Shown here in pieces: positions 13,188 to 63,095 of a stretch of DNA of 64,000 bases (its first letter is position 1; every line of letters begins with the position of its first letter). Under the pieces are notes generated by a model. The model saw only the letters and a list, made by a program, of their open reading frames with translations. It had not been told where the DNA came from and ran no database searches. Both the position numbers and the translations under genes were made by a program. Origin of the DNA: Pseudomonadota bacterium (GTDB lineage Bacteria; Bdellovibrionota_C; UBA2361; OMII01); NCBI GenBank assembly GCA_027485595.1, contig JAIXQT010000249.1, forward strand, positions 5,320 to 69,319, given 5' to 3'.

Positions 13188-13206
13188 AGTAGGGTAGGGA
13201 CCACTC

Positions 13207-18627: not shown

Positions 18628-18681
18628 TGCCTGCAAAAACTTTCCTTTAATTTTCCCCAGGGACCGGCTAAAACAACGTCC

Positions 18682-20321: not shown

Positions 20322-20333
20322 AAAGGAAGGACT

Positions 20334-20609: not shown

Positions 20610-20615
20610 ACAATT

Positions 20616-20741: not shown

Positions 20742-20750
20742 CCGCACCGA

Positions 20751-45277: not shown

Positions 45278-47185
45278 ATGAGTCGTTCTAAACCGAATCA
45301 AATTGTGGTTGTTGGAGGGGGGCATGCCGGCATTGAAGCAGCCTATGCCTCAGCTCGGGCCGGCGTCCCAACAGTCCTCGTCTCGTTGCGCCGGGACGGT
45401 ATCGGTCAGATGTCTTGCAACCCAGCTATCGGTGGGGTCGGGAAGGGGCACCTCGTTAAAGAGCTCGATGCCTTGGGGGGGCTCATGGGGCGAGCGATCG
45501 ATGCGACAGGCATTCAGTTTAAAACTCTGAACTCAAGCAAGGGTGCCGCGGCTCAAGCAACACGCGCTCAAGCGGACCGAGATCTGTATAAGGGGTGGGT
45601 TCAGCGGTTTCTCACAGGGGTTCCCGACCTGACCATCGTTGAAGGAGAGGCAGCATCGGTAGAGGTTGAAGGGAATGTTGTCGTTGGCGTTCGTCTCTCC
45701 GACGGGTCATACCTTAACGCGGCTGGGGTCGTGCTCACGACCGGAACGTTCCTGCGGGGATTGATGCACACCGGTCCGTCACAGACTCAGGGGGGACGTC
45801 TCGGTGACAAGGCATCGAATGATCTCAGTGATTCACTACGGTCCCTCGGATTCTCCCTTGGGCGACTCAAGACCGGAACGCCTCCACGCCTTCGTCGTTC
45901 AACGATTAACTTTGAAGGATTGGTTGAGCATCCAGGAGATACGCCTCCGCCACCCTTCTCTTTCATGACGAAATCGATTGAACGCCAACAAATATCGTGT
46001 TGGCAGACAACAACGAATGAGCAGATTCACGACCTTATTCGTGACAATCGAGACCACAGCCCGATGTTCAACGGACAGATACAATCTGGGGGGCCCCGAT
46101 ACTGCCCGTCAATTGAAGATAAGGTATTTCGCTTCGCCGATAAGAAGAGCCATCCAGTGTTCCTTGAGCCGGAAGGGTTTACCTCGGATATCGTGTATCC
46201 AAACGGTATCTCCACATCGCTCCCATTCGATATTCAGCAAGCGTTTATTCGCAAAATTAAGGGACTCGAAAACGTTGAGTTCTTAGCGCCTGGTTACGCG
46301 GTCGAGTACGATTTCGTGGATCCTCGCGAGCTCCTTCCTACGTATGAGACGAAAGGGATCTCAGGTCTCTATCTTGCTGGACAGATCAACGGAACGAGTG
46401 GGTACGAGGAGGCGGGCGCTCAAGGGCTTATCGCCGGCGCGAACGCGGCTTTAAAAGTTCTTGGAAAGGACCCGCTCATTATCACGCGTGGTCAGGGGTA
46501 TATCGGGGTGATGACCGACGACCTCACCACGAACGGTGTCGATGAACCGTACCGTATGTTTACCTCACGAGCTGAGTATCGCCTCATCCTTCGAGAGGAT
46601 AACGCCGCCGCTCGTCTGTGTCCGGTCGCAATGGAATACGGATTGTTAAACGAAGAGCAGCGCGTGGCCTTTGAGGAGCGACAGAACGCCTATGAGCGCG
46701 CGACGAAATGGCTTTCGAACACCTATGCTAAGCCAAATGAGTCGACGAACTCGTGGCTTGAACAAAAAGGTACCGCAACCCTTAAAGACCGAGCTTCTCT
46801 CTCGCAACTTGTAAAACGACCGCAGCTCTCCCTTGATGATATCTTGGAGCAGTTCCCATACGACGAAGAGCTTTCGACAGACCTTCGCGCAGCGGTGGAG
46901 ATTGAGTTTAAGTTTCGAGGATACCTCGATCGACAAGAAGATGAGGTTCGACACCTGAAGAAGATCGAATCAGAGTTGCTGCCCGCTGATTTTCCGTACG
47001 ACCAGATCAAGCAACTTCGTCGAGAGGCTGTTGATAAGCTCAAGAAGCATCGCCCAGCTTCGATAGGACAGGCCTCCCGAATATCGGGCATGACACCTGC
47101 AACTATCTCGATAATCGCTATGTATTTGAAGCGGTATCGAGAGGGCATGTTTGGAGCGTCCGAGCCGGAATGTTCTAACGGTTAG
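45278..47185 (+). CDS. mnmG: tRNA uridine 5-carboxymethylaminomethyl modification enzyme MnmG (GidA)
   Basis: [15 protein letters not shown] motif and full-length 635-aa GidA-like sequence. An origin-proximal location is typical for this gene. Confidence 0.95.
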
Positions 47186-48597: not shown

Positions 48598-50259
48598 TTA
48601 CTGCGCTGAGCTCGGGCCTCTCAGCACATACCGATACGTGTCTATAAAGTGCTGTCCTGATCGAAATCGTGTGGTGCCCTCAAGCTCATATTGTGGGGCA
48701 AAATCCCTTCGGTTAGCGGGAACCGGTACGAACGGATAGTCGATATAGGTAAATGACTGCGGCATGCGCTGGGGGGCAAACGGATTGCTACTGAGAAGTG
48801 GTGTTCCATTGTTGCAATCCTTCTGATACGCGGACAAACATCGTACGTGGTTGCTTGTCTCGCGCCCTAGAAGACTGAACATCGCTTGGTTATCAACAAC
48901 GAAAGGGGACTCAGGGCTAGCGGGAATTTCTTTGATAATGCGCGCGGTAATCTCATCGATATACAGGGCCTGTGTATTATAGAAGAGTTGATCTCTGCCG
49001 AGTCCACAGCATTCACCGGTCCTCGATGTCATAGCGAGTAGTGAGGCGTCACCGAATGGGATAACGCCGTAGAACCATTTCGAAACTGGGTCGATAGTTA
49101 CCAATGACGAGCTTACTTGAAGCGAGATAACGAGTGCCAGAATAGAATTACGGACCCAACCGCTGATTCCCGCGAAATAGGTAGCATAAAGGAACGCTAG
49201 GTGAAAAAAGGGCACCGTGACGAGGATATATCTGGGGTTGTTAAAGTGAAGGCAGCGGGTTGTGGCATAGACAGCGATAGAAAGGAACAGCAGTCCAACA
49301 GCGAGGAATGACATAGCTCGTGTAGCATCGGCGCGGAGAGAGGCTCTTCTCCCAATAATTCTATACGCTCCCAGCCCGATACAAACCGGCAGCAGGAGAG
49401 TTTCAATCCAATGAAAGTTTAAGAGGAATACATTGAAGAGATAATTGGTGGCGGCTGGAGAGGTAAAGTCAAAGGTAAAGAGAAGGTCGAAGATATTGTT
49501 TGGCCGAGACCAGCACGTGCCTTTGAGGTGTTGCGAGTCAAATGACGTCGGAAAGATTTTGAAGAGGTACATGCTGGACCAATACGCCAACAAAGGAACG
49601 AGTGTGACCATGAAAAACCGGGTTGCAAGGAGTCTGGTAGCAACCTTGAAGGAAGGCGCCCCCTTGAAGGAGACATAGAGTAAGGTCGCTGATCCGAGGA
49701 GTCCGAATAGTGAGAGAGCGGTGGCTTTGGCAAAAAGGGTCATGAGTCCAAAAAACATCGCCACAAAAAAGTGACGGCTCAACATCGCAGCGATATAGGC
49801 GGTTATGAAGGAGGTAGTCCCGAAGTCGGGTGTGATGATTAGGGTGTAGGTAACGCTTAGGGGATCGCACGCGAACAGCGCTATAGGAAAGAGGTAGTCG
49901 ATGAATCTCGGCGAGTTTCGCAGTATAGAAGCTCGAAGAATCACTACGATAGCGTACAGGTAGATGAGAAAGAGAAGGAGATTGCCGAGATAGAGCCCGG
50001 GAATGCCAGCGCCGGTAACAGTAGAGAAAAACCACAGGGGCGTGAGATACGATACGGTCGGATCTCCCAAACCGCATCGCGCTAATGGGAAGGCGGGAGA
50101 TTGATGGCCTATCTCTAACGCGCAACGAGCGTATATAGCGCTGTCCCAAAGAGGTATAATTTCATGCAACCTAAACAGTATGAGTCCTACGGGGACGAGG
50201 CTCAGAATAAGGCAGAGGCACGTCGCGCTACGACTCATCATGTTTCCTCGCTCGCCCAT
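48598..50259 (-). CDS. Polytopic membrane protein, GT-C (ArnT/PMT-like) glycosyltransferase candidate
   Basis: 553 aa with about 11 TM segments followed by a soluble C-terminal domain. It has an early loop motif, PLWDSAIYA. The assignment rests on architecture only. Confidence 0.4.
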   Translation of the reverse strand: MGERGNMMSRSATCLCLILSLVPVGLILFRLHEIIPLWDSAIYARCALEIGHQSPAFPLARCGLGDPTVSYLTPLWFFSTVTGAGIPGLYLGNLLLFLIYLYAIVVILRASILRNSPRFIDYLFPIALFACDPLSVTYTLIITPDFGTTSFITAYIAAMLSRHFFVAMFFGLMTLFAKATALSLFGLLGSATLLYVSFKGAPSFKVATRLLATRFFMVTLVPLLAYWSSMYLFKIFPTSFDSQHLKGTCWSRPNNIFDLLFTFDFTSPAATNYLFNVFLLNFHWIETLLLPVCIGLGAYRIIGRRASLRADATRAMSFLAVGLLFLSIAVYATTRCLHFNNPRYILVTVPFFHLAFLYATYFAGISGWVRNSILALVISLQVSSSLVTIDPVSKWFYGVIPFGDASLLAMTSRTGECCGLGRDQLFYNTQALYIDEITARIIKEIPASPESPFVVDNQAMFSLLGRETSNHVRCLSAYQKDCNNGTPLLSSNPFAPQRMPQSFTYIDYPFVPVPANRRDFAPQYELEGTTRFRSGQHFIDTYRYVLRGPSSAQ

Positions 50260-50756: not shown

Positions 50757-52514
50757 TTACAGGCCAAGCTTGAGCCGAAGCGCTTCGATCTCCCGCTCTC
50801 GTTCTTCAATAGAGAGTTCGGTGATCCACGGTGGCAAGACAGCCGGATAGCTGCAGTGCTTAGCCGCAATCAAGCCTTGGAATCGGCGACGCTCAGGGAG
50901 CGCCTCGGCTGCCGGAGGACGCCACAGTTCAAGCACCCTTTGGAGGGGTGTATCCTTGTGGGCCTTGGCCTCAGCGATCAACTCGCTGAGATCCCGCGAT
51001 GACCACGTCTCCGTGGTCTTGAGCAACGTCGCTTTGAACTCATTCGGGACGGTGATGCCGGCCCGAGTAAGAAGCTGCACGACGAACTCTTCGCGTTCGG
51101 CGCCTTGCAGATCCAAGATCGGAATCTGCACCGATGCACGCGAAACGATATCCGGGTCGAGCAGGTCAGGGCGTGAGGTCATCAGCACCCAGAGAAGCCT
51201 TCCCCGAAACCGCTTGTCACTCATCATCTGGATGATGCGCCCCGAAAGGCGTTTCTCCGTCTCATGAGAGTCTCGACTGTGCACCGAACCGAATGCCGTA
51301 TGCGCTTCATCGACCGTAATAAGAACACGGCCGAAGTTGAGGAGCTGAAAGCGCAGCAACTCAAAGAGCGCGTCGGTTCCGCCATACCACTGGGAGCGAA
51401 GTCCGGTGAGTTCGATCACCGTACGTCCACTCTTCGCGGCGAAGGCTTCAACCGTATAGGTCTTACCGCCTCCGTTTGGACCGGGAACGATAATCACTGG
51501 CACCGCCGTCGCCGGATCGTCACACCGATCGAAGGCGAACTGCATCGATTCCTTGACTGCCTTGAACCCCACAAGGTCATCTGGTGTGTGGGTCGGCATC
51601 TTGAGGATTGCGATTCCGTTGAGCGCCACCGCGAGGTGGTTGTTGGCTTCCACCAACAGTCCTTTGCGACAGACGGGCTGTTGTTCACCCGCCGCCTGCA
51701 TCAGAACACTCTCCAGTTTCTTGAGCTGCAATCCAGCGCCATCCTGCGCGATCGTTTCAATCGTGGGATCGAACGTCACGTTTGCATACGCAGGCTTTCG
51801 CCCCGTGTGCCGCAGGAAATGGAGCCGCTCGGACTCAGTCGGGAGCCCAATCTCAATCGGCTCGACCGTGGGAAGATTCAGCACCGCGCGATTAAGCTGC
51901 GATAGCTGGTCAACCACGATCACGACCAGGTTATGTCCCTGGTAGAAGTCGCTTTCAAACCAACTCAGAGCCTCAGCGACTCGGAGCCGATCGAGCTCGG
52001 GCAACTTCTCCAACTCACCGCTGGGGAGCATAGTGGCTCCATGAGCGATGAGCACAGCGAGCGCGGGGAGTTTTGGCTCCTTGGCGCGCGCCGCTTCCAC
52101 ACCTTCGCAGATGTGTCGCGCCAACACGAGGTTGGGCAACGGTGCATGGTTGTTGTGCGGGTCGGGCAGGCTTTGCACCTGCTTTGCGACCCCCTCAAAA
52201 TCCTTGCCTGCTTTTTTGAGCGTTTCAGCGACTCCCTTTCGGTCGTCCTCCGAAGGGAAGCTCAAGCCGCGAGCGGGATCAAAGAGGATAGTGTTGAACC
52301 GCACCTCGTCTCCGGCCCTGTCGTCTTCTCGCTGCCAGCGGCCGGTAAGCCGGACGCTCAGCAGATCGATCAGTGACATGTATTCCCCCTTGCGAGGGTT
52401 CCAGAAGAGGTCGTTGCGGTTCCCGTAAAGAACCACCACCCGTTTGCCGCGAAGCGAGAAGGCTCGTTCCACGGAATCAGAGAATGGTGGCCATGAAGGT
52501 GCGGCACTATTCAT
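50757..52514 (-). CDS. Tandem AAA ATPase: degenerate N-terminal AAA-like domain plus intact classical AAA domain
   Basis: D2 has Walker A GPNGGGKTY, Walker B LITVDEAH and the SRH-like MTSRPDLLDPDIVSRASVQIPI. The N-terminal half has an AAA-like layout (VVVLYGNRNDLF, LAVLIAHGA, EPIEIGLPTESERLHFL) but no P-loop Lys. ATG at 52514 overlaps the ABC-ATPase stop by 8 nt (ATGAATAG). Confidence 0.8.
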   Translation of the reverse strand: MNSAAPSWPPFSDSVERAFSLRGKRVVVLYGNRNDLFWNPRKGEYMSLIDLLSVRLTGRWQREDDRAGDEVRFNTILFDPARGLSFPSEDDRKGVAETLKKAGKDFEGVAKQVQSLPDPHNNHAPLPNLVLARHICEGVEAARAKEPKLPALAVLIAHGATMLPSGELEKLPELDRLRVAEALSWFESDFYQGHNLVVIVVDQLSQLNRAVLNLPTVEPIEIGLPTESERLHFLRHTGRKPAYANVTFDPTIETIAQDGAGLQLKKLESVLMQAAGEQQPVCRKGLLVEANNHLAVALNGIAILKMPTHTPDDLVGFKAVKESMQFAFDRCDDPATAVPVIIVPGPNGGGKTYTVEAFAAKSGRTVIELTGLRSQWYGGTDALFELLRFQLLNFGRVLITVDEAHTAFGSVHSRDSHETEKRLSGRIIQMMSDKRFRGRLLWVLMTSRPDLLDPDIVSRASVQIPILDLQGAEREEFVVQLLTRAGITVPNEFKATLLKTTETWSSRDLSELIAEAKAHKDTPLQRVLELWRPPAAEALPERRRFQGLIAAKHCSYPAVLPPWITELSIEEREREIEALRLKLGL

Positions 52515-53427
52515 GCGACACCTCCTTTGCGCGTGGTTCAACAGACACAGCATCCGAATGGGTGGTAACCCTCTCGGAGAGCTTAAGCGGCTTCTGGCCG
52601 TTCGGCTCAATCGCGGTGCGACGAATCAGCTCAACCGAGTCGAGGAAGGCAGCGTCCAGCTTGTATCGCTGGTCGTGCATCTGCCGTCCCCCAGGGGTTT
52701 CGATATCCACCACCACAAGCGCACCGTTTCCGGATGCGCCATCGTCGTAGGTCCAGTGCTGGGAGAGACCGATCACTCGGCTCCCCAGGAACACGGCCTC
52801 GCGCAGATCGTGAGAGACAAAGAAGATGGTCATCTTCCCGCCGTCCCACTTCTCCAACACGAGGTCTTGGATCCCACGACGTGTGGTTTCATCGAGACCC
52901 GAACACGGCTCGTCCATCACCAGCACCTTCGGTTCGGTGATGAGAGCCAACGCGATTGCAACCCGCTGCTGCATGCCTCCGGAGAGTTCGTGGGGGAACT
53001 TCTTTTCAGCGTCCGTGGGGAGCCCCACATCAGCCAGAAGTGCTCGGGCTCGTTCCCGAGCCTCACGACGAACACGCCAATAGCTTGGCAGCAAGAGCAA
53101 CCGTTCAGAGAGGTTAGAGTGAAGGCCTTCGTATCCAAGGGCCACGTTATCGAGGACGGTCGCATGGGGCATCAGGTTAAGTCGGTAGTCTTGGTAGACG
53201 ATACCGGCTTTTGTGCTTACCCCACTAACTTCCTCGCCGTCGATCGCCACTGAACCAAAACTCGGTGAGAGCGCTCCGAAGAGCAGGTTCAGAAGCGTTG
53301 ATTTGCCGCAGCCGGATGGACCGACCGCAGTGACCAGTTCCCCTGCGGAAACTGGGAGGTGAACGCGGTTCAGGATCGTGCGACCCGGAAAACGCATTCC
53401 CACTTCATGGAACAGGATGTTTGACAT
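52507..53427 (-). CDS. ABC transporter ATP-binding protein, NitT/TauT (SsuB/TauB-like) family
   Basis: GPSGCGKST, LSGGMQQR, LVMDEP and the H-loop SHD. It has a ~70-aa C-terminal extension. Confidence 0.88.
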   Translation of the reverse strand: MSNILFHEVGMRFPGRTILNRVHLPVSAGELVTAVGPSGCGKSTLLNLLFGALSPSFGSVAIDGEEVSGVSTKAGIVYQDYRLNLMPHATVLDNVALGYEGLHSNLSERLLLLPSYWRVRREARERARALLADVGLPTDAEKKFPHELSGGMQQRVAIALALITEPKVLVMDEPCSGLDETTRRGIQDLVLEKWDGGKMTIFFVSHDLREAVFLGSRVIGLSQHWTYDDGASGNGALVVVDIETPGGRQMHDQRYKLDAAFLDSVELIRRTAIEPNGQKPLKLSERVTTHSDAVSVEPRAKEVSHE

Positions 53428-53465
53428 GTTGGTGAGTTATTTGATGTGTTTTCGAATGAGCGCGA

Positions 53466-54353
53466 TCACTTTTTGTTGAACCACGGATACCTCCACGAGA
53501 TCCACACACCCAAGAGACGGTCGATGATGAAACAGAGCAGAGCCACCCACAAAACGTAGGGGATGATCTGGTCCATCAACATATTTCTCTTGAGGAGGTA
53601 AACCCGGTACCCAATCCCCGCGGAGGCCGCGAGGAATTCGGCCGCCATAAGACAGGCCACCCCCATTTGGAGCGACTCGCGAATGGCGGTAACGACCTTC
53701 GGCGCGATACCCGGCAGAATGACCCGATAGAGGATCTCAAACTGGGAGAGCCCAAGACTCTGCTTACCTTGGATAAGCTTCATCGGAACCTCGGACGCCG
53801 CGTTGTAGGTCGCGAGCGTTACCGAGAAGAAGAAGCCGATGATGACCGCCATAATTTTAGGCAGCTCATCGATTCCAAAGGCGATGACCAGCACCGGCGA
53901 AATCAGGATCGGGGGAACGAACCCCAGAACCCTAATCACCGGACCGAACATCGCTCCGCAGTACGGGAACGCTCCCATATGCAGCCCGAGAAGTACGGCG
54001 ATACCGACCCCATAGGCGTACGCCCACAGCAGCCGTTTGCCGGACGCGATGGTGTCAACTTTCAGGATCGGCTGTTTGAGTCGCATATCCTCTTTAAGGG
54101 CGATGGTTTTCACCCCGGCAAGGATCTGCTTTGGATACGGCATGATTTTTTCTTTATCGATGCCATCGTTTTCCACAATGCTTGCAGCGTGACGCTGCTT
54201 GGCTTTGTGAATGTATGTTCCGCATAGAACGAGGAACGGAATGATCGCGAGGATCGCCGCTATCGTTCTCGTCGGAACACAGTCGGTGCGGAGAAACGGG
54301 TTTCTAATCCGTTTCCACCACGGTCGTTGCGTCGAAGACGCGCTTGTTTGCAT
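53466..54353 (-). CDS. ABC transporter permease, NitT/TauT (SsuC/TauC-like) family
   Basis: 295 aa with 6-7 TM segments and a BPD_transp_1-like EAA region (QGKQSLGLSQFEILYRVILP). Confidence 0.85.
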   Translation of the reverse strand: MQTSASSTQRPWWKRIRNPFLRTDCVPTRTIAAILAIIPFLVLCGTYIHKAKQRHAASIVENDGIDKEKIMPYPKQILAGVKTIALKEDMRLKQPILKVDTIASGKRLLWAYAYGVGIAVLLGLHMGAFPYCGAMFGPVIRVLGFVPPILISPVLVIAFGIDELPKIMAVIIGFFFSVTLATYNAASEVPMKLIQGKQSLGLSQFEILYRVILPGIAPKVVTAIRESLQMGVACLMAAEFLAASAGIGYRVYLLKRNMLMDQIIPYVLWVALLCFIIDRLLGVWISWRYPWFNKK

Positions 54354-54522
54354 GGTTTTGGTTTTGGGAGTTACTGAATCGTCATGACGTCACCACTCGG
54401 TGGCGCCTGAAGAGCAGTTCAGTATCTGCTTTCTTCGTCTACCCGAAATCCTTGTCGCCAAGGCGTAAGGGTAGATGGAGGAGAAGACAAGTAGGAAAAA
54501 CATTCTAGAAAAACCATCGATA

Positions 54523-54578
54523 GTTGTGTCTGTCGACACAACACCCCGATTTGAGGTGCTGTGTTGACAGACAACAAC
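54523..54578. repeat. Long imperfect hairpin inside the 371-nt SBP-permease spacer
   Basis: gttgtgtctgtcgacacaac (54523-54542, itself an 8-bp-stem hairpin) is complementary to gctgtgttgacagacaacaac (54558-54578). The core TGTCTGTCGACACA matches the reverse complement TGTCTGTCAACACA at 13/14 positions. Confidence 0.7.
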
Positions 54579-54724
54579 GAATTAAAAACCTTCGTAAGAA
54601 CCGTAAGCACATCCGTGACCTCCTGAACATGTATCGCTACATGCCAGGAGGCTAGGATGGGTTTGCTTTGGGTTTTATTAACCGCACGTTACGTATTTCT
54701 ACATTCCGCACGGAAACTCTTCGG

Positions 54725-55774
54725 TTACTTCGACGCAGCCTTCATATATTGCGTATCGAAACGCAAAACTACGTTGGCTTTATCTCCAACAACCGAACCA
54801 TCAGGAAAGGCGATCCCCAGGGCGTCCACCGAAGCGGCGGATCCAAGGTAGCCTTTGGCGAAGAGGAACTGCCGCACCTTTTCGGTGGCGGCCTTGTTCT
54901 CCGCGCCCTCAGTGAAGCGCACAGCGTCCTCTGGGGTCCAGAAGAGCGCCGTGGTTTTCAACTGCGCGTCATACTCGGCAAGGGTGCACTCGCTGGCTTT
55001 CGCCATCTCCGTGCGCGCCGTTTTGGCGGCCTCCGAACGACCTTGCATCCGACCAAGGATCTGATACCAGCCCTTGGCGAGGATCTGCCCGACCTTGGGA
55101 TTCTTCTTCAGCACACTGGTCTTGACGACCAGGAGATCCTGGATCTCTCCGGGGATCTTTGCGCTGTCGAAGAGCCGCACAGAGCCCACTTTCTGCTCAC
55201 ACTGGAGCGTGAAGGGGGCCCAGGTCGTCACCGATGGCACCTGACCGCTGGTGAAGGCGGCGGTGAGTTCTGATTCGGCCTGGTTGTAGAGGCTAAACGA
55301 GCTGAGGTCTCCCCCAAGCTGTTCAACCCCCCGCGCCAGGAGATACTCGCTCACGGATTTCTCCACGATTGAGATCTTTTTGCCCTTGAGGTCCGCGAAC
55401 GATCTGACCGATTTGCCGTCGCCGATAACAGCATCGTTGCCGTTGCTGTAATCACCCATAACGACCACCGTACTGTCGATTCCGGCGGAGCCGGGACCCA
55501 TCAGGAGGTCCATGTTGGTGATGACGATGGCGTCGGTCTGGCCGGAGGCGTAGTTCTCAATCGTTTCCCCGTAGGTGCGGGGGACGAACTCGAACGTGAC
55601 TCCTTCAGCTTTCCCGAGTTCAGCGAAGATGCCGTTGGTGTCGCCGTAGTAATACGGCATCCAACCGGCGTAGACGCTGATCCCGACCTTGACGGTTTCA
55701 GCGGAAGCGGCGGTGATGCCGCCGATGATAAGGAGCGCACTACATGCGCTGCGAATGAGTGAGGTAAGTTTCAT
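54725..55774 (-). CDS. ABC transporter substrate-binding protein, NMT1/SsuA/TauA-like
   Basis: Signal peptide MKLTSLIRSACSALLIIGGITAASA, then VKVGISVYAGWMPYYY..., DLKGKKISIVEKSVSEYLL, typical of NitT/TauT family binding proteins. Confidence 0.82.
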   Translation of the reverse strand: MKLTSLIRSACSALLIIGGITAASAETVKVGISVYAGWMPYYYGDTNGIFAELGKAEGVTFEFVPRTYGETIENYASGQTDAIVITNMDLLMGPGSAGIDSTVVVMGDYSNGNDAVIGDGKSVRSFADLKGKKISIVEKSVSEYLLARGVEQLGGDLSSFSLYNQAESELTAAFTSGQVPSVTTWAPFTLQCEQKVGSVRLFDSAKIPGEIQDLLVVKTSVLKKNPKVGQILAKGWYQILGRMQGRSEAAKTARTEMAKASECTLAEYDAQLKTTALFWTPEDAVRFTEGAENKAATEKVRQFLFAKGYLGSAASVDALGIAFPDGSVVGDKANVVLRFDTQYMKAASK

Positions 55775-55814
55775 AGTTTTCTGTATCTGAGCGTTCTAAC
55801 GGTTTTGGTGTTGG

Positions 55815-55849
55815 CTCGCCCCACCTTGCTTTCGCAGAGGTGGGGCGAG
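55815..55849 (-). promoter_or_regulatory. 11-bp GC-rich stem-loop directly after the PspA-like gene (intra-operon attenuator or RNA stabiliser candidate)
   Basis: ctcgccccacc (55815-55825) pairs perfectly with ggtggggcgag (55839-55849), with a 13-nt loop and no following U-run on the minus strand. Confidence 0.5.
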
Positions 55850-55863
55850 GTTCTGACCGGGTA

Positions 55864-56685
55864 TTAGCCGGCCATTGTGGGTTTCGTGGCTTCGGTCTCC
55901 TTCTTGTCAGCGCCGTCCGACGTGCCACCTTCGCGCTCTTTTCTGCGCGCGGCGAGCATTTCGGCCATGCGGTTACCAGAGGTCGACTGCGACCCGGCTG
56001 CCTCATACTGAGCGTCCTGACGGGCGACATCGGTGCCGGCGAGACGCTCGGAGATACGAGCTTTGGACTTGAGGTCCTCATTGGATTTGAGAACAGCTGC
56101 CACCGGATCGAACTCATCGTGCTGCGACAGCCCGGCAAGGCGGTCGTTGAGCTCGATAAGCTGCTCCGACGAGACGCGATCGGCGATCGCTTGAGCCTCT
56201 TTAGCAGGCAGATCACGCAGCTCGGCTTGGAGCTTCGTGAGGTTCTGCATGTGAGACTGCATGCTGTTCTCGAGTTCCTTGATGGACTGTGCCAGTTGGA
56301 GCTCTTCCGCTTCGAGGCGCTGAATGTCAGCGTCAAAGCGGTCGAACGCCGCCTGGTGGCGGTCCTTCTCGGCTTGCTCATTGGCTTTTTCAAAGAGGCT
56401 CAGCGCCCCTTCGCGTTTGCCGAGGAGTTCCTTGAGGCTCTTGCCGACCTCGGTGAGGCGATTGCGTTTGCCTTGGATCACGCCTTCCACCTGAGCGACC
56501 GCGTCACGGAGGTCCGTGTAGCGTTTACTCAGGTTCATGGCCTTGATCTCGAAGGCGTCCTTGATACCGTCCACAGAGCCCGTGAATTGGGCTTCTGCGG
56601 ACCGCTTAATTCCGAGCGCGGCTCGGATCCACCGGAACAAAAAGAAGTTCCAGATACTTTTGGTCATTGAGGGTCTAGTTTGCAT
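55864..56685 (-). CDS. PspA/IM30 (Vipp1/ESCRT-III superfamily)-like protein
   Basis: Amphipathic N-terminal helix (SIWNFFLFRWIRAALGI), then long heptad-like helices. LRDAVAQVEGVIQGKRNRL resembles the PspA/Vipp1 helix-1 region, and QRLEAEELQLAQSIKELENSMQ is a further example. The C-terminal tail is charged and flexible. The start is ATG 56685 or 56667; the track ORF extension to 56859 overlaps the upstream gene. Confidence 0.55.
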   Translation of the reverse strand: MQTRPSMTKSIWNFFLFRWIRAALGIKRSAEAQFTGSVDGIKDAFEIKAMNLSKRYTDLRDAVAQVEGVIQGKRNRLTEVGKSLKELLGKREGALSLFEKANEQAEKDRHQAAFDRFDADIQRLEAEELQLAQSIKELENSMQSHMQNLTKLQAELRDLPAKEAQAIADRVSSEQLIELNDRLAGLSQHDEFDPVAAVLKSNEDLKSKARISERLAGTDVARQDAQYEAAGSQSTSGNRMAEMLAARRKEREGGTSDGADKKETEATKPTMAG

Positions 56686-56701
56686 GGTTTGATGAGGTGG
56701 G

Positions 56702-57691
56702 TTACTGCCCTTTGTTTCCGGCTTCGAGATACACCTGATCGTCAACCGCTCCGTTGAGGGCGGGTTTGTTGAGACGACCTTCGACACGACGGGCCGCCTG
56801 GAGAGCCATGGTGAGGCTATCCGGGGCGCCGTTGTGCAGTGCTGCCGCTTGAACTCCAACCGGGAGGTCAGCGGCTATCTCGAGCTTGGCTTCATTGAAT
56901 GCGGTCGTAAGGGCATCGACAGCATCCATCGCTTGTTCCAGTTCCTGTTCCTTCTCTTCGTGCAGTTCGATCAGCCTTGTGAGCTGATTGAACCGTGCAC
57001 GAGCCGTCTCGTCCTCATTCTCAGACAGCTTCCTCTGAAGGCGCGTTCTCTGTCCCCGTTGTGTGCTCACATCGGATTCTTCGAGCGCTTCGTGAAGTTG
57101 ACTGGCCTGTTTGAGGATGACGATACCGTGGAGAAAGTTCTCCTCGGCTAGTTCGAGGTAGCGGGTCGACCGCCGGCCGCGTAACGGATCGTTTATGTGC
57201 GCTCTGAGGTCCTCGATGAGGCCCTCAAAAGCCACCTTGAAGTTTTTGGCGCGGCGAGCAAGCTCCTCCGCATCTCTTCGGTTCAGGTTCTGAATTACTG
57301 TGACAATTTCCTCAAGCTGTGCGCGCCGAAGCGCTTCACGAAACTCAAGGACTACCTTCTTGGCGTATTCAGGCCCGCGGTACAGGTACCGGTAGGCGAA
57401 TGTGCTAAGACCAACAAAGGCGAGCCCTACGGAGGCAACGAGGCCTCCAAGGCTCGCCCCAAAAAGAAGCCCATGCGTCATCAGGACCGAGATCAACCCG
57501 AGCGGGTATCTCCAGATCCATCCGGAATGCATGACCTTCCGCATCGTTCGGCGTTGAATATCAGCAGGGGTAAGGCTGCTGAGCATCTCGGCCGGCGAAG
57601 ACACATCAGTGAAGGAGTCGTTCCCCCACACAGGGCCGGAAGGGGGACCAGTGCCTCCCTCCGGCTCATAATCATATTTTCGTACGGCCAT
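56702..57691 (-). CDS. Two-TM membrane protein with ~230-aa cytoplasmic helical/coiled-coil domain
   Basis: TM pair WRYPLGLISVLMTHGLLFGASLGGLVASVGLAFVGLSTFAY, then helical repeats rich in E/R/L/A (ELARRAKNFKVAFEGLIEDLRA, EEKEQELEQAMDAVDALTTAF). I recognised no family. The architecture is reminiscent of XpaC/TelA-like helical proteins. Confidence 0.6.
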   Translation of the reverse strand: MAVRKYDYEPEGGTGPPSGPVWGNDSFTDVSSPAEMLSSLTPADIQRRTMRKVMHSGWIWRYPLGLISVLMTHGLLFGASLGGLVASVGLAFVGLSTFAYRYLYRGPEYAKKVVLEFREALRRAQLEEIVTVIQNLNRRDAEELARRAKNFKVAFEGLIEDLRAHINDPLRGRRSTRYLELAEENFLHGIVILKQASQLHEALEESDVSTQRGQRTRLQRKLSENEDETARARFNQLTRLIELHEEKEQELEQAMDAVDALTTAFNEAKLEIAADLPVGVQAAALHNGAPDSLTMALQAARRVEGRLNKPALNGAVDDQVYLEAGNKGQ

Positions 57692-57710
57692 CTAAGGCTT
57701 GGTGTTGGTG

Positions 57711-59282
57711 TTAGAGTTTAGTCCCCTCCACCAGGATGAATTCAACTCGGGCCATGCGCGCGCGATACGCTCGCTCACCCTCGTTCTTCTTCCTGATGGG
57801 AGGTTTTGTTGACCCTGCTCCTTCGGCTTTTACTCGGTTCGGATCAACCCCGTGTGTTACGCGCAGGTATTGCGCCACCACTTGGGCACGCTCAAGAGAG
57901 AGCGCTTGATTTTGAACCTCATCGCCGTAGCCGGTGTGACCTCGGATGATCACACGCAACGCGGAGTAGTTGTTATTGAGAAGCTCCGCTGCTTTATCCA
58001 CCGCCTGTTTACCGGATTCGTCGAGCAGGTTGTTTCCCTGCTGAAACGTCACCGGGTCTACATTGAGTGGTCCGTATTCGCGAAGCTTCTTCCATCCGGC
58101 GTCATCGATCTGCTCAAAGGTCACCTCGTTCGCCACGGTCGTGGCGTCAAGGATCCCTACCGAACGTTTCGACAGCTCTTCAAGGACGCTTTTGTTGATG
58201 ATCTGAAACGGATTTACACCCGCAAAGGACTTTGTGCGACGCAGAACGTCGCTGCACGAGCTGACCGTGTCCACGATCTTTTCGCTCGTTCTCGCCCCTT
58301 TTCCAGTATCAACGCCAAACTGCACTTGGCAGTTCTCGAACAGGTCTGCCCAATCGAAATGGGGCAAAACCTGCTCAAGCCGATCCCGCTTAATTCCCGT
58401 ATCTTTCGCCATTTCATCCAGCATCTTGGTTTTGTTCATCTGGTAGTAAGCCAGAGTGCCAAAATACGCTTCGAAGAAGCGGAGCAGCTCGCTTGGTTGC
58501 TTGTCGATCACCTCGCGGTGCACGACAAACACGTCCACGATATACCCCTGGAAGGCATCAGATCCGAGAATAACTTTGAGTCGCTTATCCTCCAAGGCTT
58601 TGGAGAGTTCAGGTTCCCAGAGCATTGCGGCATCAACTTGCCGAGCTTTTAGTGCCTCTTCCACTTTGTCGATGGCTGTCTTCGGCTGTCTCCATCCCGC
58701 GCTTTCACGCAGAGAGGGTAGGTCGAAGTTGGCAGTCACCATGTCGAGGAAGAAGCTGCTCGGACTCGCGTCTACATAGGCTACCTTCGCTCCGTTTAAG
58801 AGCTCGGTTACCTTACCGGTTGGAAAACGATCGCTGTAGCCTACAAGAGCGTCAGCCCCCGCAGAATCTGCAACGACCCCGACAATCACACCTGGGTAGC
58901 TGAGCTTGTGGCCCAGCTCCAGGTAGACATTCACGGGGAGCACCATCGCCTGGTACTCCCCGCGACTAAACTTCTCAAGCCTAGACACATAATCCCCGTT
59001 GTCATCATTGAAGCGGATATCCAGCCCTTTTGTGGGGCCCTGTCTCCGCATCTCCGGTGATTTCAAGAACCAGTATCCGAGATAGCCATCACCCGCGACG
59101 GTGAAGGCCTTTGCTTGCGAGCGAGGGTCGCTCGTTCGAAGTTGCACCCCCTCCTCCGCTTTCTGCTTCCTCATGTCCCAGAGCTTGGTGACCCCCCAGA
59201 TTGCGAGCAATCCAAGGATAGCGATTCCCACCAAGATGAAGAACTTGAAGGAGCTCGGCGGCTCTTCGTTCTCGTAGTTCAC
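57711..59282 (-). CDS. N-terminally TM-anchored binding-protein-like domain fused to OmpA-like peptidoglycan-binding domain
   Basis: GTG start and TM FKFFILVGIAILGLLAIWGV. The central PBP type-2-like region is followed by a C-terminal OmpA_C-like segment: RVIIRGHTGYGD...LSLERAQVVAQYL...ARVEFILV. Confidence 0.75.
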   Translation of the reverse strand: MNYENEEPPSSFKFFILVGIAILGLLAIWGVTKLWDMRKQKAEEGVQLRTSDPRSQAKAFTVAGDGYLGYWFLKSPEMRRQGPTKGLDIRFNDDNGDYVSRLEKFSRGEYQAMVLPVNVYLELGHKLSYPGVIVGVVADSAGADALVGYSDRFPTGKVTELLNGAKVAYVDASPSSFFLDMVTANFDLPSLRESAGWRQPKTAIDKVEEALKARQVDAAMLWEPELSKALEDKRLKVILGSDAFQGYIVDVFVVHREVIDKQPSELLRFFEAYFGTLAYYQMNKTKMLDEMAKDTGIKRDRLEQVLPHFDWADLFENCQVQFGVDTGKGARTSEKIVDTVSSCSDVLRRTKSFAGVNPFQIINKSVLEELSKRSVGILDATTVANEVTFEQIDDAGWKKLREYGPLNVDPVTFQQGNNLLDESGKQAVDKAAELLNNNYSALRVIIRGHTGYGDEVQNQALSLERAQVVAQYLRVTHGVDPNRVKAEGAGSTKPPIRKKNEGERAYRARMARVEFILVEGTKL

Positions 59283-59293
59283 GTTTGTGTTGG

Positions 59294-60013
59294 TTACTTT
59301 ACTGGATCGAAGGACTCTAATTCAGCCGTGGCGTCTGCCAGGGCTTTTTTGAGTTCTTCGAGATTCTGTGCATTCTGATAGAACACGCTCCACTGTCGCA
59401 GGGCGTGGTCTCCTGCCAATTGGAATCCGATGGTGTACAGCGGGATCGACTCCCCCTGATCGAGTAGACGTTGCATCTTCCGTGTGAACGGCGTCAGCGA
59501 GTCACTCGATTGTCCATCGGTAAGGACGATAAGCCGAAACTCACCGTATCCCAACTGCATCGCTCTTTTCGCAACGAGCGTTTCCGTGCCTTGTACGCAC
59601 GCGCGACCAAGCGGGGTTCCTCCGCTGGCAGCAAGGTTGTTGATCGCTTTCAGGATCGCTACTCGGTTTTTGAGACCAAGTGGTACCCGCTCACCTTCTC
59701 CATCCGCGTCGAAGGCATAGAGCCCGATAGCAACCTCCTCTGGGAGTCTGTTTACGAGCTCAAGAGCAGCCATCTTCGCGCTTCGGATACGATCCCCGTC
59801 CATCGAACCGCTCCCGTCTAAGACGAGGTAGAAGTTCTTCTGTAGAGACTGGACCGCGCCCGGCGGTGGAGGGTCAGGAGGCGTTTGCGCGCCTCCTGTC
59901 GTTGACGTTGTATTCGATGCCTCAGTTGCAGGGCTTTTAGGGCCCTGGGGTGGTGGATCGCAACTGGTCAGTCCGACCAGCGCCACACAAGCAAGTGGAA
60001 AGAAACGTTTCAT
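59294..60013 (-). CDS. VWA-domain lipoprotein
   Basis: Lipobox LVGLTSC, a Pro-rich linker and MIDAS motifs LVLDGSGSMDG ... GGTPL ... VLTDGQ. AAAGGAG lies upstream. Confidence 0.82.
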   Translation of the reverse strand: MKRFFPLACVALVGLTSCDPPPQGPKSPATEASNTTSTTGGAQTPPDPPPPGAVQSLQKNFYLVLDGSGSMDGDRIRSAKMAALELVNRLPEEVAIGLYAFDADGEGERVPLGLKNRVAILKAINNLAASGGTPLGRACVQGTETLVAKRAMQLGYGEFRLIVLTDGQSSDSLTPFTRKMQRLLDQGESIPLYTIGFQLAGDHALRQWSVFYQNAQNLEELKKALADATAELESFDPVK

Positions 60014-60038
60014 GTGAGTGATTGCTCCTTTCGTTTAG

Positions 60039-61718
60039 TTACTTGCTTGGGGTGAATTCAGCTGCTTCGGCCTCCACGTTCAACACGCGGAATACGACAC
60101 GACGGTTCGCCGACCATTCTTCTTTGGTTTTAGGTTGCGGGAATTTCGGTGAGGAAACGCCCCTACCCGTAGCCAAGAACTGCGATTCGTCAACAAGGAG
60201 TCCCTTGGTCTTGCAATAGGCCAGGTAACTCTGACGAACCGCGTTTGCTCGATTGAGCGAGAGGTTTTTTGCAGCCAGCTCTTTTTGCTGGACGATAAGC
60301 GGATTTTCACCCGCTGCTCTCGCTTTCTCAATTCCGGTCGGATCACTGTGTCCCTCTACCGCCACAACCGCACCACCGAAGGTGCTGGCGAGCTTCAGGG
60401 CTTTTTCGTAATCGTTAGCGTAGCGCGCTATGTCGAAACTGGCTTGATTGGGGTCGAAGTTAATTTCAACCACAAACAGCGTACCAGAGTCCCACGATGT
60501 CGATTCAGCTTCGATGGCCGAGGCCAACTTGGCGGAATCAAACTTCGCGGACGCGACCGCGGATGTGTCGGTGTTCTTCAGACCAGCGGCGAGTGCCGCA
60601 TAGTCCCATTCAGCATGAGTCAGCGCGGTTTTGCCACGCATCAACCCCATGCCTACTAACGTTGCTTGAATCTCTTCAGAGATGACGTTGAAGTTACGGA
60701 GCGTTCCGAGAGCTTTGAAGAACTGAACATTTCCCGCGTGCGACACGAATTCAGCGTCACTGATCATCCCTTCCACGTCAGCTGTCATCGTTGAAGTGCC
60801 GAACAGAAGCTCGGCGCTTTTCGACAAAAGCTGCTGATACCTCGCACCTTTTTGAGCGCTCATATCACCCAAGGCCTCCTGACCACGCATAAGGACATGC
60901 ACGATCTTCTGCGCCTTGTCGCGGTTGGCGTCCAGCCAGTCCTTGCGGACAGCCCAGACGTCAGCGATCACCTTGCTCGCTGTCTTGGTAGACAGCGAGA
61001 TGCGAGCATCCTTTACAGAACCCTCACTACCGGTCCCCACCTTACCTCCGCTGGTCAGAGCGGCGGCGTCGGGAGAGATAGCAGCGATAGCGGCGATCGA
61101 GGCGTCGGTGCCGAAGGCAGATACGGGATCAACCGCTTTGCCCTTTGTGTCGTATTTCGGGAGGGTGAGCTCCTTCATCCACACAAAGCTCACATCACGG
61201 GGAGAGAGCCCCGCGCTTGAGAGCACCGTTCCCACATAGTCCATATGGGGGCCGAAAAGCTGAAGGGCGATTTTTTTCCCTTTCAGATCGGCCGGCTTGA
61301 GATCGCCACGCACAACCACGGTGTCGCCACCGTTGGACCAGGTAATCTGGTTGAGCACGACAAGCGGAACCCCTGCCTTCGCGAATGCCGGTTGAACGGC
61401 AAGCACTTGGGCCATGGTTCCACGAAAGAACGGCGATTCGCCGTTCAAGACCGACTGCGCCTGTTTGAGAGCGTCATCCTCATGCTTGAGCGTGTAGTCC
61501 ACGCCTTCCGCCGAGTCGAAGCCCTCCATGTCAGCGAGGATCGCCGCCACGTCGCCACCCCACGTGATCACAGGCAGCGTGAGCGGCCCGGCTTTCACAG
61601 GAGATGCCTTCGTGGAGAGGGTGTCCTCAGCAGGTTTGGCGTTTTCGGTAACAACCTGCGCTCCGAGGGGGAGCGCAGACATCATAAGAGCGGCAAGAGC
61701 CGCGAGGTTTGGTTTCAT
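60039..61718 (-). CDS. Secreted NMT1/SsuA-like binding-protein domain fused to OmpA-like peptidoglycan-binding domain
   Basis: Signal peptide MKPNLAALAALMMSALPLGAQV (ATG 61718). ADLKGKKIALQLFGPHMDYVGTVLSSAGLSPRDVSFVWM is typical of NitT/TauT binding proteins. The C-terminus is OmpA_C-like: VAVEGHSDPTG...LSLNRANAVRQSYL...NRRVVFRV. Confidence 0.78.
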   Translation of the reverse strand: MKPNLAALAALMMSALPLGAQVVTENAKPAEDTLSTKASPVKAGPLTLPVITWGGDVAAILADMEGFDSAEGVDYTLKHEDDALKQAQSVLNGESPFFRGTMAQVLAVQPAFAKAGVPLVVLNQITWSNGGDTVVVRGDLKPADLKGKKIALQLFGPHMDYVGTVLSSAGLSPRDVSFVWMKELTLPKYDTKGKAVDPVSAFGTDASIAAIAAISPDAAALTSGGKVGTGSEGSVKDARISLSTKTASKVIADVWAVRKDWLDANRDKAQKIVHVLMRGQEALGDMSAQKGARYQQLLSKSAELLFGTSTMTADVEGMISDAEFVSHAGNVQFFKALGTLRNFNVISEEIQATLVGMGLMRGKTALTHAEWDYAALAAGLKNTDTSAVASAKFDSAKLASAIEAESTSWDSGTLFVVEINFDPNQASFDIARYANDYEKALKLASTFGGAVVAVEGHSDPTGIEKARAAGENPLIVQQKELAAKNLSLNRANAVRQSYLAYCKTKGLLVDESQFLATGRGVSSPKFPQPKTKEEWSANRRVVFRVLNVEAEAAEFTPSK

Positions 61719-62192
61719 TACTAGGTATTGGGTCTGATTGTCGGTTTGATAAACCTCTACGTCGGATGTCCGAGTAACCGTACGAAGAGTCGACCATACA
61801 AACGAGAACACACATGAGAGATATCCCATGCGTCCTCACTCATTATTGTCTTGAAGAAACACTAAGCGTTGTGCGCCTACTGTCTCCTCCTCCATCTACC
61901 CACAATAAAATTTGAAAAGAGCGAACTGTTCCACGCCACGGTAGTGGTCCTAGACATCTCGATTGATAGAGGTGTTTGTGTGATGAACTACGCTGGTAAG
62001 CCCGCAGGCCCCGCGAGGAACAATGTAAGCGGCGCATTGTACCGGAATATTTGGATTCACCCAACTTTTCGAGGAAGTTACGCACTCGGGCACTTAGCCT
62101 ATTGGCAGCTGTCGGGATCGGTTCGGACGGTGGTGTTTTGGGCATATAGCCGTGACTCAATCGATTGCGAGGTCGCCTCTTTGAGGCGACGA

Positions 62193-63095
62193 ATGTACAG
62201 TGGGAGCATCAGCACCACCCACCTCCATGTGGCCAAGCAAAACGAAAGCGCCACCGATGCTCGGTTGTTTCAGATTCCGTTACTCGATCCACGAGCGGTA
62301 GCCCAACGAACGGAACCTGAGAGCACGACCCCACTCGTTGGAGCAGCAGATCTTCTCCGAGTGACCGAGGTTTTAGAGGCGCATCCAAGGCGCTTTCTGA
62401 CTAACGACTATACCCGACTTATCACACTTGCTGACAACGCGTCGCTCTCCGAGACCTCCAAGCGCCTGCGAGAGCTCATCCCTCAATCCAGGGATGGACA
62501 CCTCACCCAAGCCCCGAGCTGGAAGGAGTTCCACAACCCACTCAATCGGGGCGATCTCACGCTGGGGGAGGCCCTTGACGCGCTCGGCCCGTTCGCATTT
62601 TCCCAAAATAAGATCCCGATGTTAGTTCGATTGATAGAGAACCCGGAGTGGGATTGGTTACCGTTCTATGATTTCTTCCCTGGTGGAACAACGCTGGCCA
62701 CCCACGACGCGCTGCATATGCTCCTCGGTCGTGGACTCCTTGAGCACGACGAAGCGTTTGTGATCGGATTTACGATGGGCGCGTCGGGAGAGATGAGTGA
62801 GTGGAAGACTCGACTCTTTGCTCTCGTTTCGGGCACGCTCTACCCAGAGGCCTACCGATTTGGAGATTCGGCTCTTGAGATATTCGCGGACGCGGTGCGG
62901 CTTGCTTCAGACTCAGGAGGCGCTCCGCTCCACACTCAATCCTATGACACGATGCTCGACAAACCAATCTCGGAGCTACGAGCGCTGCTCGGTATTCCTG
63001 AAAAGGGCCTCGCCGAGTACTTCCGCAATGAAGCGATCCGCTTTCCGCGAGATATCGCGAGCCAGAAAGCGGCTCTCAGAGCGGATGGATTGTAA
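62193..63095 (+). CDS. Coq4-family-like protein (HDxxH-x11-E motif)
   Basis: THDALHMLLGRGLLEHDEAFVIGF matches the spacing of the COQ4 zinc-ligand motif HDxxH(x)11E (compare human [23 protein letters not shown], from memory). The start is uncertain: ATG 62193 has a GAGG 8 nt upstream, and the track ORF extends to 61869. Confidence 0.4.
   Translation: MYSGSISTTHLHVAKQNESATDARLFQIPLLDPRAVAQRTEPESTTPLVGAADLLRVTEVLEAHPRRFLTNDYTRLITLADNASLSETSKRLRELIPQSRDGHLTQAPSWKEFHNPLNRGDLTLGEALDALGPFAFSQNKIPMLVRLIENPEWDWLPFYDFFPGGTTLATHDALHMLLGRGLLEHDEAFVIGFTMGASGEMSEWKTRLFALVSGTLYPEAYRFGDSALEIFADAVRLASDSGGAPLHTQSYDTMLDKPISELRALLGIPEKGLAEYFRNEAIRFPRDIASQKAALRADGL

Follow-up and report, generated by a model that had tools for sequence, protein, structure and literature searches.

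A conserved nine-gene envelope cassette that joins a divergent PspA/Vipp1 homologue to a two-domain AAA protein and an ABC importer

How bacteria take their PspA/Vipp1 polymers apart is a matter that the field has yet to settle. The locus described here raises this question in a concrete form. It lies in a stretch of 64,000 nucleotides (nt) of contig JAIXQT010000249.1, from a Bdellovibrionota metagenome-assembled genome; we refer to this whole stretch as the window, and all coordinates below are window positions unless a locus is named. Nine open reading frames (ORFs) on the minus strand run from 61718 down to 50757, and they place a divergent member of the PspA/Vipp1 family in the same gene row as a two-domain AAA protein, an ABC importer, and three proteins with predicted periplasmic domains. 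Is this row a unit, and could its AAA protein act upon its PspA-like protein? The genes are designated g1 to g9 in the direction of transcription and are listed here with their lengths in amino acids (aa).

g1: 60039..61718, minus strand, 559 aa; secreted NMT1/SsuA-like binding domain, joined at its C-terminal side to an OmpA-like domain of the peptidoglycan-binding kind
g2: 59294..60013, minus strand, 239 aa; VWA-domain lipoprotein
g3: 57711..59282, minus strand, 523 aa; N-terminal transmembrane anchor, periplasmic SsuA-like domain and OmpA_C domain
g4: 56702..57691, minus strand, 329 aa; inner-membrane hairpin of two transmembrane helices with a long cytoplasmic helical domain
g5: 55864..56685, minus strand, 273 aa; divergent PspA/Vipp1 (IM30, ESCRT-III superfamily) homologue
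g6: 54725..55774, minus strand, 349 aa; free periplasmic binding protein of the NitT/TauT (SsuA/TauA) type
g6-g7 spacer: 54354..54724, minus strand, 371 nt; structured intercistronic segment specific to the window's clade
g7: 53466..54353, minus strand, 295 aa; ABC importer permease, TauC/SsuC-like
g8: 52507..53427, minus strand, 306 aa; ABC ATPase of the TauB/NrtCD type, extended by about 80 aa at its C-terminus
g9: 50757..52514, minus strand, 585 aa; two-domain AAA protein with a degenerate D1, an intact classical D2 and a conserved C-terminal tail

We examined the conservation of the row from two starting points. A search anchored on g5 combined contig look-ups with a scan of 185,579 species genomes by means of a 10-sequence alignment and yielded 37 loci; the gene content of each locus was determined by tblastn with the nine window proteins together with inspection of ORFs. 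The nine genes occur in identical order in 18 distinct loci of this search. A second search, anchored on the AAA protein, scanned metagenomes and yielded 80 loci at 34–45% identity, among them at least 12 further cassettes. In total the same nine-gene order is found in at least 30 independent loci, with protein identities of 35–50%. These loci come from Bdellovibrionota metagenome-assembled genomes (the window's own clade, 84–98% identity), Holophagae/Acidobacteriota, Aminicenantes, Victivallales, Multivoradales, and others, and they include two cultured hosts, Acanthopleuribacter pedis KCTC 12899 and Sulfidibacter corallicola M133, both of the Holophagae/Acidobacteriota. The flanks of the cassette differ in every lineage, and because they are unrelated between lineages the unit consists of exactly these nine genes and can be regarded as a discrete cassette. 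The original prediction had described the row from the window alone; its nine ORFs, junction sizes and domain contents were all reproduced by ORF listing and domain scans, and the co-conservation of the gene set was found whether the search was anchored on g5 or on the AAA protein. As a separate observation, two cassette loci of 20.8 kb in Acanthopleuribacter pedis (L019 and L028, on scaffolds 2 and 6) are 100% identical, reflecting either a recent large exact duplication or redundancy of the assembly.

Departures from the complete cassette are informative as to its construction. One locus (L016) keeps g1 to g5 and the AAA gene but has lost the transporter, and in this locus and one other (L079) g5 is followed directly by the AAA gene with no transporter between. 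In L032, g4 to g9 are kept and g1 to g3 are replaced by a fusion of MurF and alanine racemase lying directly upstream. Four loci of the AAA-anchored search (L038, L069, L084, L098) contain g6 to g9 only, without g4 or g5, and one of these, L084, has an IS200-like gene upstream of the reduced cassette. No AAA gene lies beside the cassette in L001, L010, L021, L026, and L036. These variants show that the cassette is built of three modules: A (g1–g3), B (g4, g5, and g9), and C (g6–g8).

Several of these loci have further features of their own. The fusion in L032 (6395–8869 of that locus) encodes an 824-aa protein with a Mur ligase (MurF-like) and an alanine racemase part, and it ends exactly at the start of g4, a position that hints at a link to the synthesis of peptidoglycan precursors; the same locus carries a PAS-GGDEF gene on the opposite strand, inserted between g8 and g9. 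In the Aminicenantes locus L001 (CP070627; positions 10929–20828) the cassette breaks off inside the binding-protein gene. The genes downstream encode an Mrr_cat nuclease and a NACHT/AAA_35-FGE-sulfatase protein of 1164 aa, and the arrangement looks like an insertion of the defence-island type that has replaced g7 to g9. In L037 (positions 1–20879) a distant member of the g5 family, P0218 (292 aa), stands outside any cassette, among small neighbours with HNH, AP2, PilM-like, T2SSF_N, and Zeta-toxin-like domains; the setting suggests a phage or other mobile element. The cassette itself was also considered as an anti-phage defence system, a candidate that was set aside when PADLOC returned generic domain similarity only.

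A potential concern with any gene row is that its members lie together fortuitously or are divided among separate operons. Such an explanation could draw upon the hairpin-rich 371-nt gap that parts g6 from g7 in the window, and upon the existence of the modular variants (A with B, B with C, and C with the AAA gene). The large gap is confined to the window's clade, however, and the order of the genes is identical in at least 30 loci of several phyla with unrelated flanks. Chance adjacency is therefore not supported; we regard it as effectively refuted by synteny, its remaining probability being negligible.

For g5, the single sequence, 37 close relatives taken individually, and the narrow profile made from them (A1) gave only coiled-coil noise in Pfam and in PDB, and neither g5 nor any of the 37 relatives gave a match to PspA_IM30 (PF04012). 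An exhaustive profile search of 1.84 billion representatives indicates that the g5 family is small and self-contained, with 410 clusters at E ≤ 1e-3 and 255 at E ≤ 1e-10, and the search stops short of the much larger PspA family. PspA_IM30 is the best Pfam match in 3 of the 10 most distant family members (4e-6 to 1e-3); all of these matches are below threshold, the best reaching 27.0 bits against a cutoff of 33.9, and they cover positions 22–211 of the 220-position model. We then used a broad profile of 72 sequences (A4), widened with distant members from the exhaustive search. Against PDB this profile matched Nostoc Vipp1 (6zvr) with E = 5e-12 and 49 bits, collinearly over about 220 residues (profile positions 42–264, Vipp1 30–239). 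Other Vipp1/PspA chains followed at 4e-11 to 6e-6, 7o3w among them at 1e-6, and Vipp1/PspA entries made up 8 of the 10 top matches; the best unrelated coiled coil stood at 2e-7. In the alignment with Vipp1, a conserved α5-like element of g5, 'KLAGTDVxxQDxEY', is paired with Vipp1 'ELAGADLETQFAQLE'.

An AlphaFold2 model of g5 (mean predicted local distance difference test score, pLDDT, of 76) contains helices at residues 7–35, 38–100, 104–190, 194–231, and 239–251. When this model was compared with PDB by Foldseek, ranks 1–5 and 7–9 were full-length matches to Vipp1, with E-values of 9e-4 to 8e-3 and template-modelling scores of 0.45–0.58 normalised to the target. The predicted N-terminal helix is amphipathic (hydrophobic moment 0.41–0.45), and the layout of the modelled fold, with this helix followed by a long α1/α2-3 hairpin, α4, and α5, fits the ESCRT-III type, although the fold statistics are marginal for an all-helical protein.

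Could g5 be a generic coiled coil that resembles PspA through its helical composition alone? Consistent with this explanation are the coiled-coil noise returned by the narrow searches, the large bias term (27.8) of the HMMER alignment between A4 and Vipp1, and the modest Foldseek E-value of 9e-4. Helical composition alone does not readily account for Vipp1 matches that stand about five orders of magnitude above the best unrelated coiled coil, that run collinearly from end to end, and that align the characteristic 'ELAGxDLExQ' region, nor for the occupation of 8 of the 9 top Foldseek places by Vipp1 with full-length coverage, nor for the fact that PspA_IM30 heads the Pfam matches of several distant members over nearly the whole model. 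We consider the generic coiled coil very improbable. Because the A4 profile matches Vipp1/PspA and the top Foldseek matches are Vipp1, we conclude that g5 is a genuine, very divergent PspA/IM30 homologue, one which falls short of the curated Pfam score and is recovered by the homology and fold comparisons. The assignment to the PspA type made in the original prediction is thus borne out by deep methods only: the collinear A4 match, the Foldseek matches to Vipp1, and the sub-threshold PspA_IM30 matches of the distant members.

Two further points concern the ends of g5. Its close relatives begin at a second ATG (MTKSIW..., 56667), six codons inside the listed start, which gives a protein of 267 aa. 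The junction of 16 nt between g4 and g5 is correct as measured from the ORF ends and becomes 34 nt if g5 starts at 56667, as it does in these relatives. The C-terminal tail, otherwise variable in alignment A1, contains two short, strongly conserved motifs: M-L-A-A-R, in which A245 and R247 are invariant, and RPxI at the terminus, in which P269 is nearly so. These look like partner-binding linear motifs and would be candidates for recognition by the AAA protein.

The AAA protein, g9, was found to match Pfam AAA (PF00004) at residues 342–465 only (5.2e-13; 50 bits against a cutoff of 21.2). In PDB, both the single sequence and a profile of 16 orthologues matched through the D2 domain only, to Afg2, VAT/CDC48, fidgetin-like 1 (FIGL1), CdvC, katanin, spastin, Msp1, Vps4B, and p97 (E = 1e-15 to 1e-9), with Vps4B ranking below Afg2, VAT, and FIGL1. 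The closest solved relatives are all of the classical clade, in agreement with the classical AAA assignment originally proposed. Alignment of the 16 orthologues (A7) reveals that in D2 (approximately residues 340–520) the Walker A motif GPNGxGKT, the Walker B motif VDEAH, an extended HTAFGS.H motif, and Arg459 are invariant, and that every one of the 16 has the [WYF][YF]G pore loop. From the conserved Walker A and B motifs, Arg459, and the pore loop, D2 therefore looks like an active substrate-threading motor, competent at the level of its motifs. The D1 domain (approximately residues 1–300) has 'LTGDxxGLF' in the place of Walker A and lacks GKT and DE. By hhalign it matches D2 in register, aligning the sensor-1-like strand and the 'IEIxLP..ER' segment, with E = 0.026 and a probability of 1.9%. 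Of the two-domain description given beforehand, the intact D2 and the degenerate motifs of D1 thus stand; the likeness of D1 to an AAA domain is weak.

Pfam and NCBIfam scans of g9 detected no MIT domain, no other N-terminal domain, and no recognisable ESCRT-III-binding domain. Because the MIT domain is absent, g9 is not a Vps4 orthologue; it could nevertheless work like one. Past the AAA lid the protein has a tail of about 60 residues (50757–50960) with the motif W..QRxFQxLIAAxHCSYPxLLP, to which no family is assigned. Residues W531, R543, Q546, A550, A551, H553, S555, Y556, L560, and P561 of this tail are invariant in A7.

The remaining member of module B, g4, has two transmembrane helices at approximately residues 63–104, followed by about 220 helical residues. 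Of all cassette members it evolves the fastest, and its slot is occupied in all loci. An alignment of 26 slot-equivalent proteins (A3) shows a conserved hairpin of two transmembrane helices and a cytoplasmic domain of helical character; the conserved C-terminal motif, AARRVEDRLR...DDxYLxAG, resembles the α4/α5 junction of g5. A Pfam scan placed g4 in no family and gave no Snf7 or PspA match in any of the 26 members; the family profile matched nothing in PDB, and Foldseek returned no ESCRT-III chain for the AlphaFold2 model (pLDDT 66). By hhalign there is a weak collinear match between the g4 and g5 families (E = 0.0026, probability 11%; g4 145–329 against g5 53–238). It is plausible from these alignments that g4 is a membrane-anchored paralogue of g5 which would nucleate or cap the g5 polymer. 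Ravi, Aravind and colleagues have labelled the corresponding protein of a related operon SIG+TM+Snf7 (PMC11237479).

How closely the AAA gene is associated with g5 can be judged from the AAA-anchored loci. By tblastn and hidden Markov model searches, g5 lies upstream of the AAA gene in 22 of 26 loci, and g8 lies directly upstream of it in 47 of the 51 loci with enough sequence. The gene at the far end of the cassette, g1, is present in 12 of 18 loci, most of the rest being cut by the locus edge. The association of the AAA gene with the ABC transporter is thus no looser than its association with g5. This raises the possibility that the client of the AAA protein is the transporter or another membrane protein, handled in the manner of Msp1 or FtsH, and that g5 is an independent, passive stabiliser of the membrane. 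The adjacency of g8 and g9, with an overlap of 8 nt in the window, would fit such a role, as would the four loci that keep g6 to g9 without g4 and g5, the presence of Msp1 among the PDB matches of g9, and the unexplained C-terminal extension of about 80 aa in g8. On the other hand, the adjacency may merely reflect gene order within a single operon, and of the four reduced loci L084, at least, looks truncated, with its IS200-like gene alongside. Furthermore, L016 and L079 keep g5 followed by the AAA gene in the absence of the transporter, and PspA and two-AAA gene pairs without any ABC genes have been reported (PMC11237479). We consider a transporter client unlikely, and count the survival of the g5-AAA link after transporter loss in favour of a functional pairing of these two proteins.

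The three proteins of module A are predicted to occupy the periplasm. The first, g1, matches Pfam NMT1 (2.9e-9) and has a hydrophobic N-terminal signal segment at residues 5–24. Its OmpA match is borderline and below the gathering score (22.1 bits against 27.2), with the motifs GHSDPTG and NLSLNRANAV present; orthologues with 37–58% identity fill the first cassette position. The second gene in every complete cassette is g2, which matches Pfam VWA (8.5e-14; 52.6 bits against 23.8) and VWA_2 (8e-12). An LTSC lipobox and the metal ion-dependent adhesion site (MIDAS) motif DGSGSM are present, and the metal-site residues DGSGS, GGT, and TDG are visible, identifying it as a VWA protein with a MIDAS. 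The third, g3, belongs to OmpA_C (PF00691; 8.4e-17, 61.8 bits against 27.2); it has a transmembrane segment at residues 8–35 and, over residues 96–308, matches NCBIfam SsuA_fam (2.7e-12) and TIGR03427 (1e-9). A stator of the MotB type was considered for g3 and was ruled out because the transmembrane segment lacks an Asp.

Module C has the composition of a NitT/TauT importer, in that a binding protein of the SsuA/TauA/NMT1 type, a BPD_transp_1 permease, and an ABC_tran ATPase are encoded together. The permease g7 matches Pfam BPD_transp_1 (1.9e-16) and NCBIfam TauC (2.1e-26), and the ATPase g8 matches Pfam ABC_tran (3.5e-31) and the NCBIfam taurine ATPase TauB (2e-46). The free binding protein g6 matches SsuA_fam (7.6e-21) and Pfam NMT1 (5.9e-12). 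Its nearest curated family is TIGR03427, the urea-carboxylase-associated binding protein, to which it does not belong, its score of 329.5 bits (2.1e-98) lying just below the cutoff of 333.9. The nearest solved structure is SsuA (3uif) at only 3.6e-6, and assignment of a ligand from solved structures was abandoned because none is close.

These matches allow for a different view of the cassette, in which its main task would be to take up, with high affinity, some small compound of nitrogen or sulfur (guanidine, urea, or a sulfonate, for instance). The wall-tethered domains would then capture the ligand, and the PspA-like/AAA pair would do no more than buffer the membrane or proteome stress caused by an imported chaotrope. 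In addition to the near membership of g6 in TIGR03427, this view would account for the three binding-protein-type domains of the cassette, and it has a parallel in GimA, a binding protein of the NitT/TauT type that binds guanidine with a dissociation constant near 100 nM, guanidine being toxic above millimolar concentrations (PMC12704784). An uptake system of this kind is harder to reconcile with our finding that none of the loci examined has catabolic genes (for urea or guanidine carboxylase, hydrolase, or desulfonation) along with the cassette, with the lack of a guanidine riboswitch or other Rfam element in the 48–64 kb part of the window, or with L016, which keeps g1 to g5 and the AAA gene and has no transporter. 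We consider uptake as the main function to be quite unlikely.

The outline of the cassette has already been published, as a computational prediction only, and its novelty is lowered thereby. In that work (PMC11237479; preprint 2020, mSystems 2024), bacterial PspA was noted to co-occur occasionally with a protein of two AAA+ domains, the N-terminal one inactive, and PspA, a transmembrane-anchored Snf7 homologue, and the two-AAA protein were described as members at times of longer operons encoding an ABC ATPase plus permease and a fusion of a periplasmic binding protein to OmpA (PBPB+OmpA). ATP-dependent remodelling of the Vps4 kind, linked to solute transport, was proposed there as well. The neighbourhood of PspA, two-domain AAA, ABC, and PBP-OmpA genes that the original prediction had ascribed to comparative-genomic surveys is the one found in this paper. 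Its example is OGG56892.1 from Candidatus Handelsmanbacteria, a row of six genes (PspA, PBPB+OmpA, permease, ABC, TM+Snf7, and AAA). Compared by description, the published operon and the present cassette share the PspA-type protein, an AAA protein with a further N-terminal part (an inactive AAA+ domain in the published case, a degenerate and weakly AAA-like one here), a membrane-anchored helical protein, the ABC ATPase and permease, and a binding-protein::OmpA fusion, and they share a logic in which ATP-dependent remodelling of a PspA/ESCRT-III polymer is tied to solute transport and peptidoglycan. The published six genes stand in another order, whereas here a nine-gene order is fixed. New relative to that description are this fixed order, the VWA lipoprotein, the second PBP::OmpA fusion, the free binding protein, and the modular variants.

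Comparison with characterised systems helps to define what is particular to the cassette. With the PspA/Vipp1 proteins (E. coli PspA, B. subtilis LiaH, cyanobacterial Vipp1), g5 shares the modelled layout of an amphipathic α0, a long hairpin, α4, and α5, as well as its profile-level homology to solved Vipp1 and its best fold matches; a membrane partner is encoded next door, comparable to PspB/C or LiaI. Unlike them, g5 lies below the PspA_IM30 threshold in a separate small family of about 410 representative clusters and has extra conserved C-terminal motifs (MLAAR and the terminal RPxI); the cassette lacks PspF, PspB/C, and LiaFSR regulators, and g5 is paired instead with a classical AAA protein. 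With the ESCRT-III/Vps4 systems (CdvB/CdvC), the cassette has in common a gene for an ESCRT-III-superfamily polymer beside one for a classical-clade AAA protein with an intact threading pore loop, and CdvC and Vps4B are among the PDB matches of g9. It differs from those systems in that g9 has a degenerate D1 in place of the MIT domain and Vps4 β-domain and matches Afg2 and VAT best, in that the putative g5 polymer would be of the PspA type and not the Snf7 type, and in its setting in a diderm envelope with periplasmic components. The importer has the same canonical binding protein, permease, and ATPase as SsuABC, TauABC, and the guanidine importer GimABC, but is embedded in a larger cassette without catabolic genes, which adds two binding-protein domains fused to OmpA_C and has a C-terminal extension on g8.

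We propose a model in which the nine genes make up a single cassette of three modules, horizontally mobile and spanning the envelope, that serves membrane maintenance, with the g5 polymer recycled by the AAA protein; we give this model about an even chance of being correct. In module A, the binding-protein-like domains of g1 (soluble) and g3 (anchored in the inner membrane) would be tethered to peptidoglycan through OmpA_C, and the MIDAS of g2 would bind a protein partner, so that g1 to g3 build a wall-anchored periplasmic assembly above the site. In module B, g5 would bind the inner membrane by its amphipathic helix and polymerise like PspA/Vipp1, with g4 as the fixed membrane anchor or nucleator of the polymer. 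Hexamers of g9 would recognise the conserved C-terminal motifs (MLAAR and the terminal RPxI of g5) and thread g5, g4, or both through the D2 pore, such that the polymer is disassembled and recycled; this would be the part taken by Vps4 in archaeal and eukaryotic ESCRT-III. Module C would import a small solute, possibly of the urea, guanidine, or sulfonate class, and modules A and C together would hold membrane maintenance at a particular place in the envelope and link it with sensing or uptake of the solute. The function that we infer is accordingly membrane repair or remodelling coupled to solute uptake, and the link from import to remodelling is the weakest part of the model.

Several results must be set against this model. 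With respect to the polymer, g5 and its close relatives miss the PspA_IM30 gathering score, the Foldseek E-value of 9e-4 is marginal for an all-helical fold, and the published Snf7 label for g4 was not confirmed by the Pfam, PDB-profile, or Foldseek comparison. With respect to the AAA protein, scans found no MIT or other ESCRT-III-binding domain in g9, its gene is linked to g8 at least as closely as to g5, five loci have no AAA gene beside the cassette, and four AAA-anchored loci have neither g4 nor g5. With respect to the whole, solved structures offer no ligand for g6, and we found no experimental study of such a cassette in the literature.

Most junctions of the cassette are short in the window. 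From g1 to g9 the gaps are 25, 11, 19, 16, 89, 371, and 38 nt, followed by the 8-nt overlap of g8 and g9. The long g6-g7 spacer is 87% conserved among four relatives, the Bdellovibrionota-type loci L006, L008, and L009 included, and contains several long hairpins, in which 12 pairs are kept through changes on both sides; in other lineages the same junction is much shorter, being 0–3 nt in the annotated loci L002 and L004. The spacer could adjust how much binding protein is made relative to transporter, or an internal promoter could lie within it. No Rfam family matched it, and a known RNA or riboswitch in the spacer or elsewhere in the 48–64 kb part of the window was dismissed, the only Rfam match being a chance CRISPR-DR match inside g6 (E = 0.15). 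A scan for sigma-70 promoters and terminators was uninformative, with fewer promoter-like sites than in shuffled sequence. The ORFs that flank the cassette, at 48598–50259 (minus strand, 553 aa) and 61869–63095 (plus strand, 408 aa), belong to no Pfam family, and in relatives neither is conserved beside the cassette; MnmG/GidA lies farther out, at 45278–47185.

What the cassette may mean extends beyond the window. There is an annotation gap: the families of g5 (about 410 representative clusters) and g4 are invisible to Pfam, and their members are labelled "hypothetical protein" or "chromosome segregation ATPase". The fixed link to an ABC importer, to a VWA lipoprotein, and to binding domains tethered to peptidoglycan points to a possible coupling across the envelope that has no characterised precedent. 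The most far-reaching possibility is that of a bacterial ESCRT-III system with its own ATP-driven disassembly, in which a PspA-type polymer would be nucleated by its transmembrane paralogue g4, recycled by a dedicated classical AAA unfoldase, and physically connected through the inner membrane with an ABC importer and with a periplasmic complex anchored to peptidoglycan. We put this forward tentatively, as an idea with a real but less than even prospect of proving correct. According to a 2025 review (PMC7619361), a Vps4-like ATPase "appears absent in bacteria". If the proposal is true, it would contradict that view, and an answer to the 'Vps4 problem' would have arisen in some bacteria separately from that of archaea and eukaryotes. 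A diverged PspA homologue and an intact classical AAA protein are paired in dozens of genomes, and because two of the hosts, Acanthopleuribacter pedis and Sulfidibacter corallicola, are in culture, the question of how such polymers are disassembled is directly testable.

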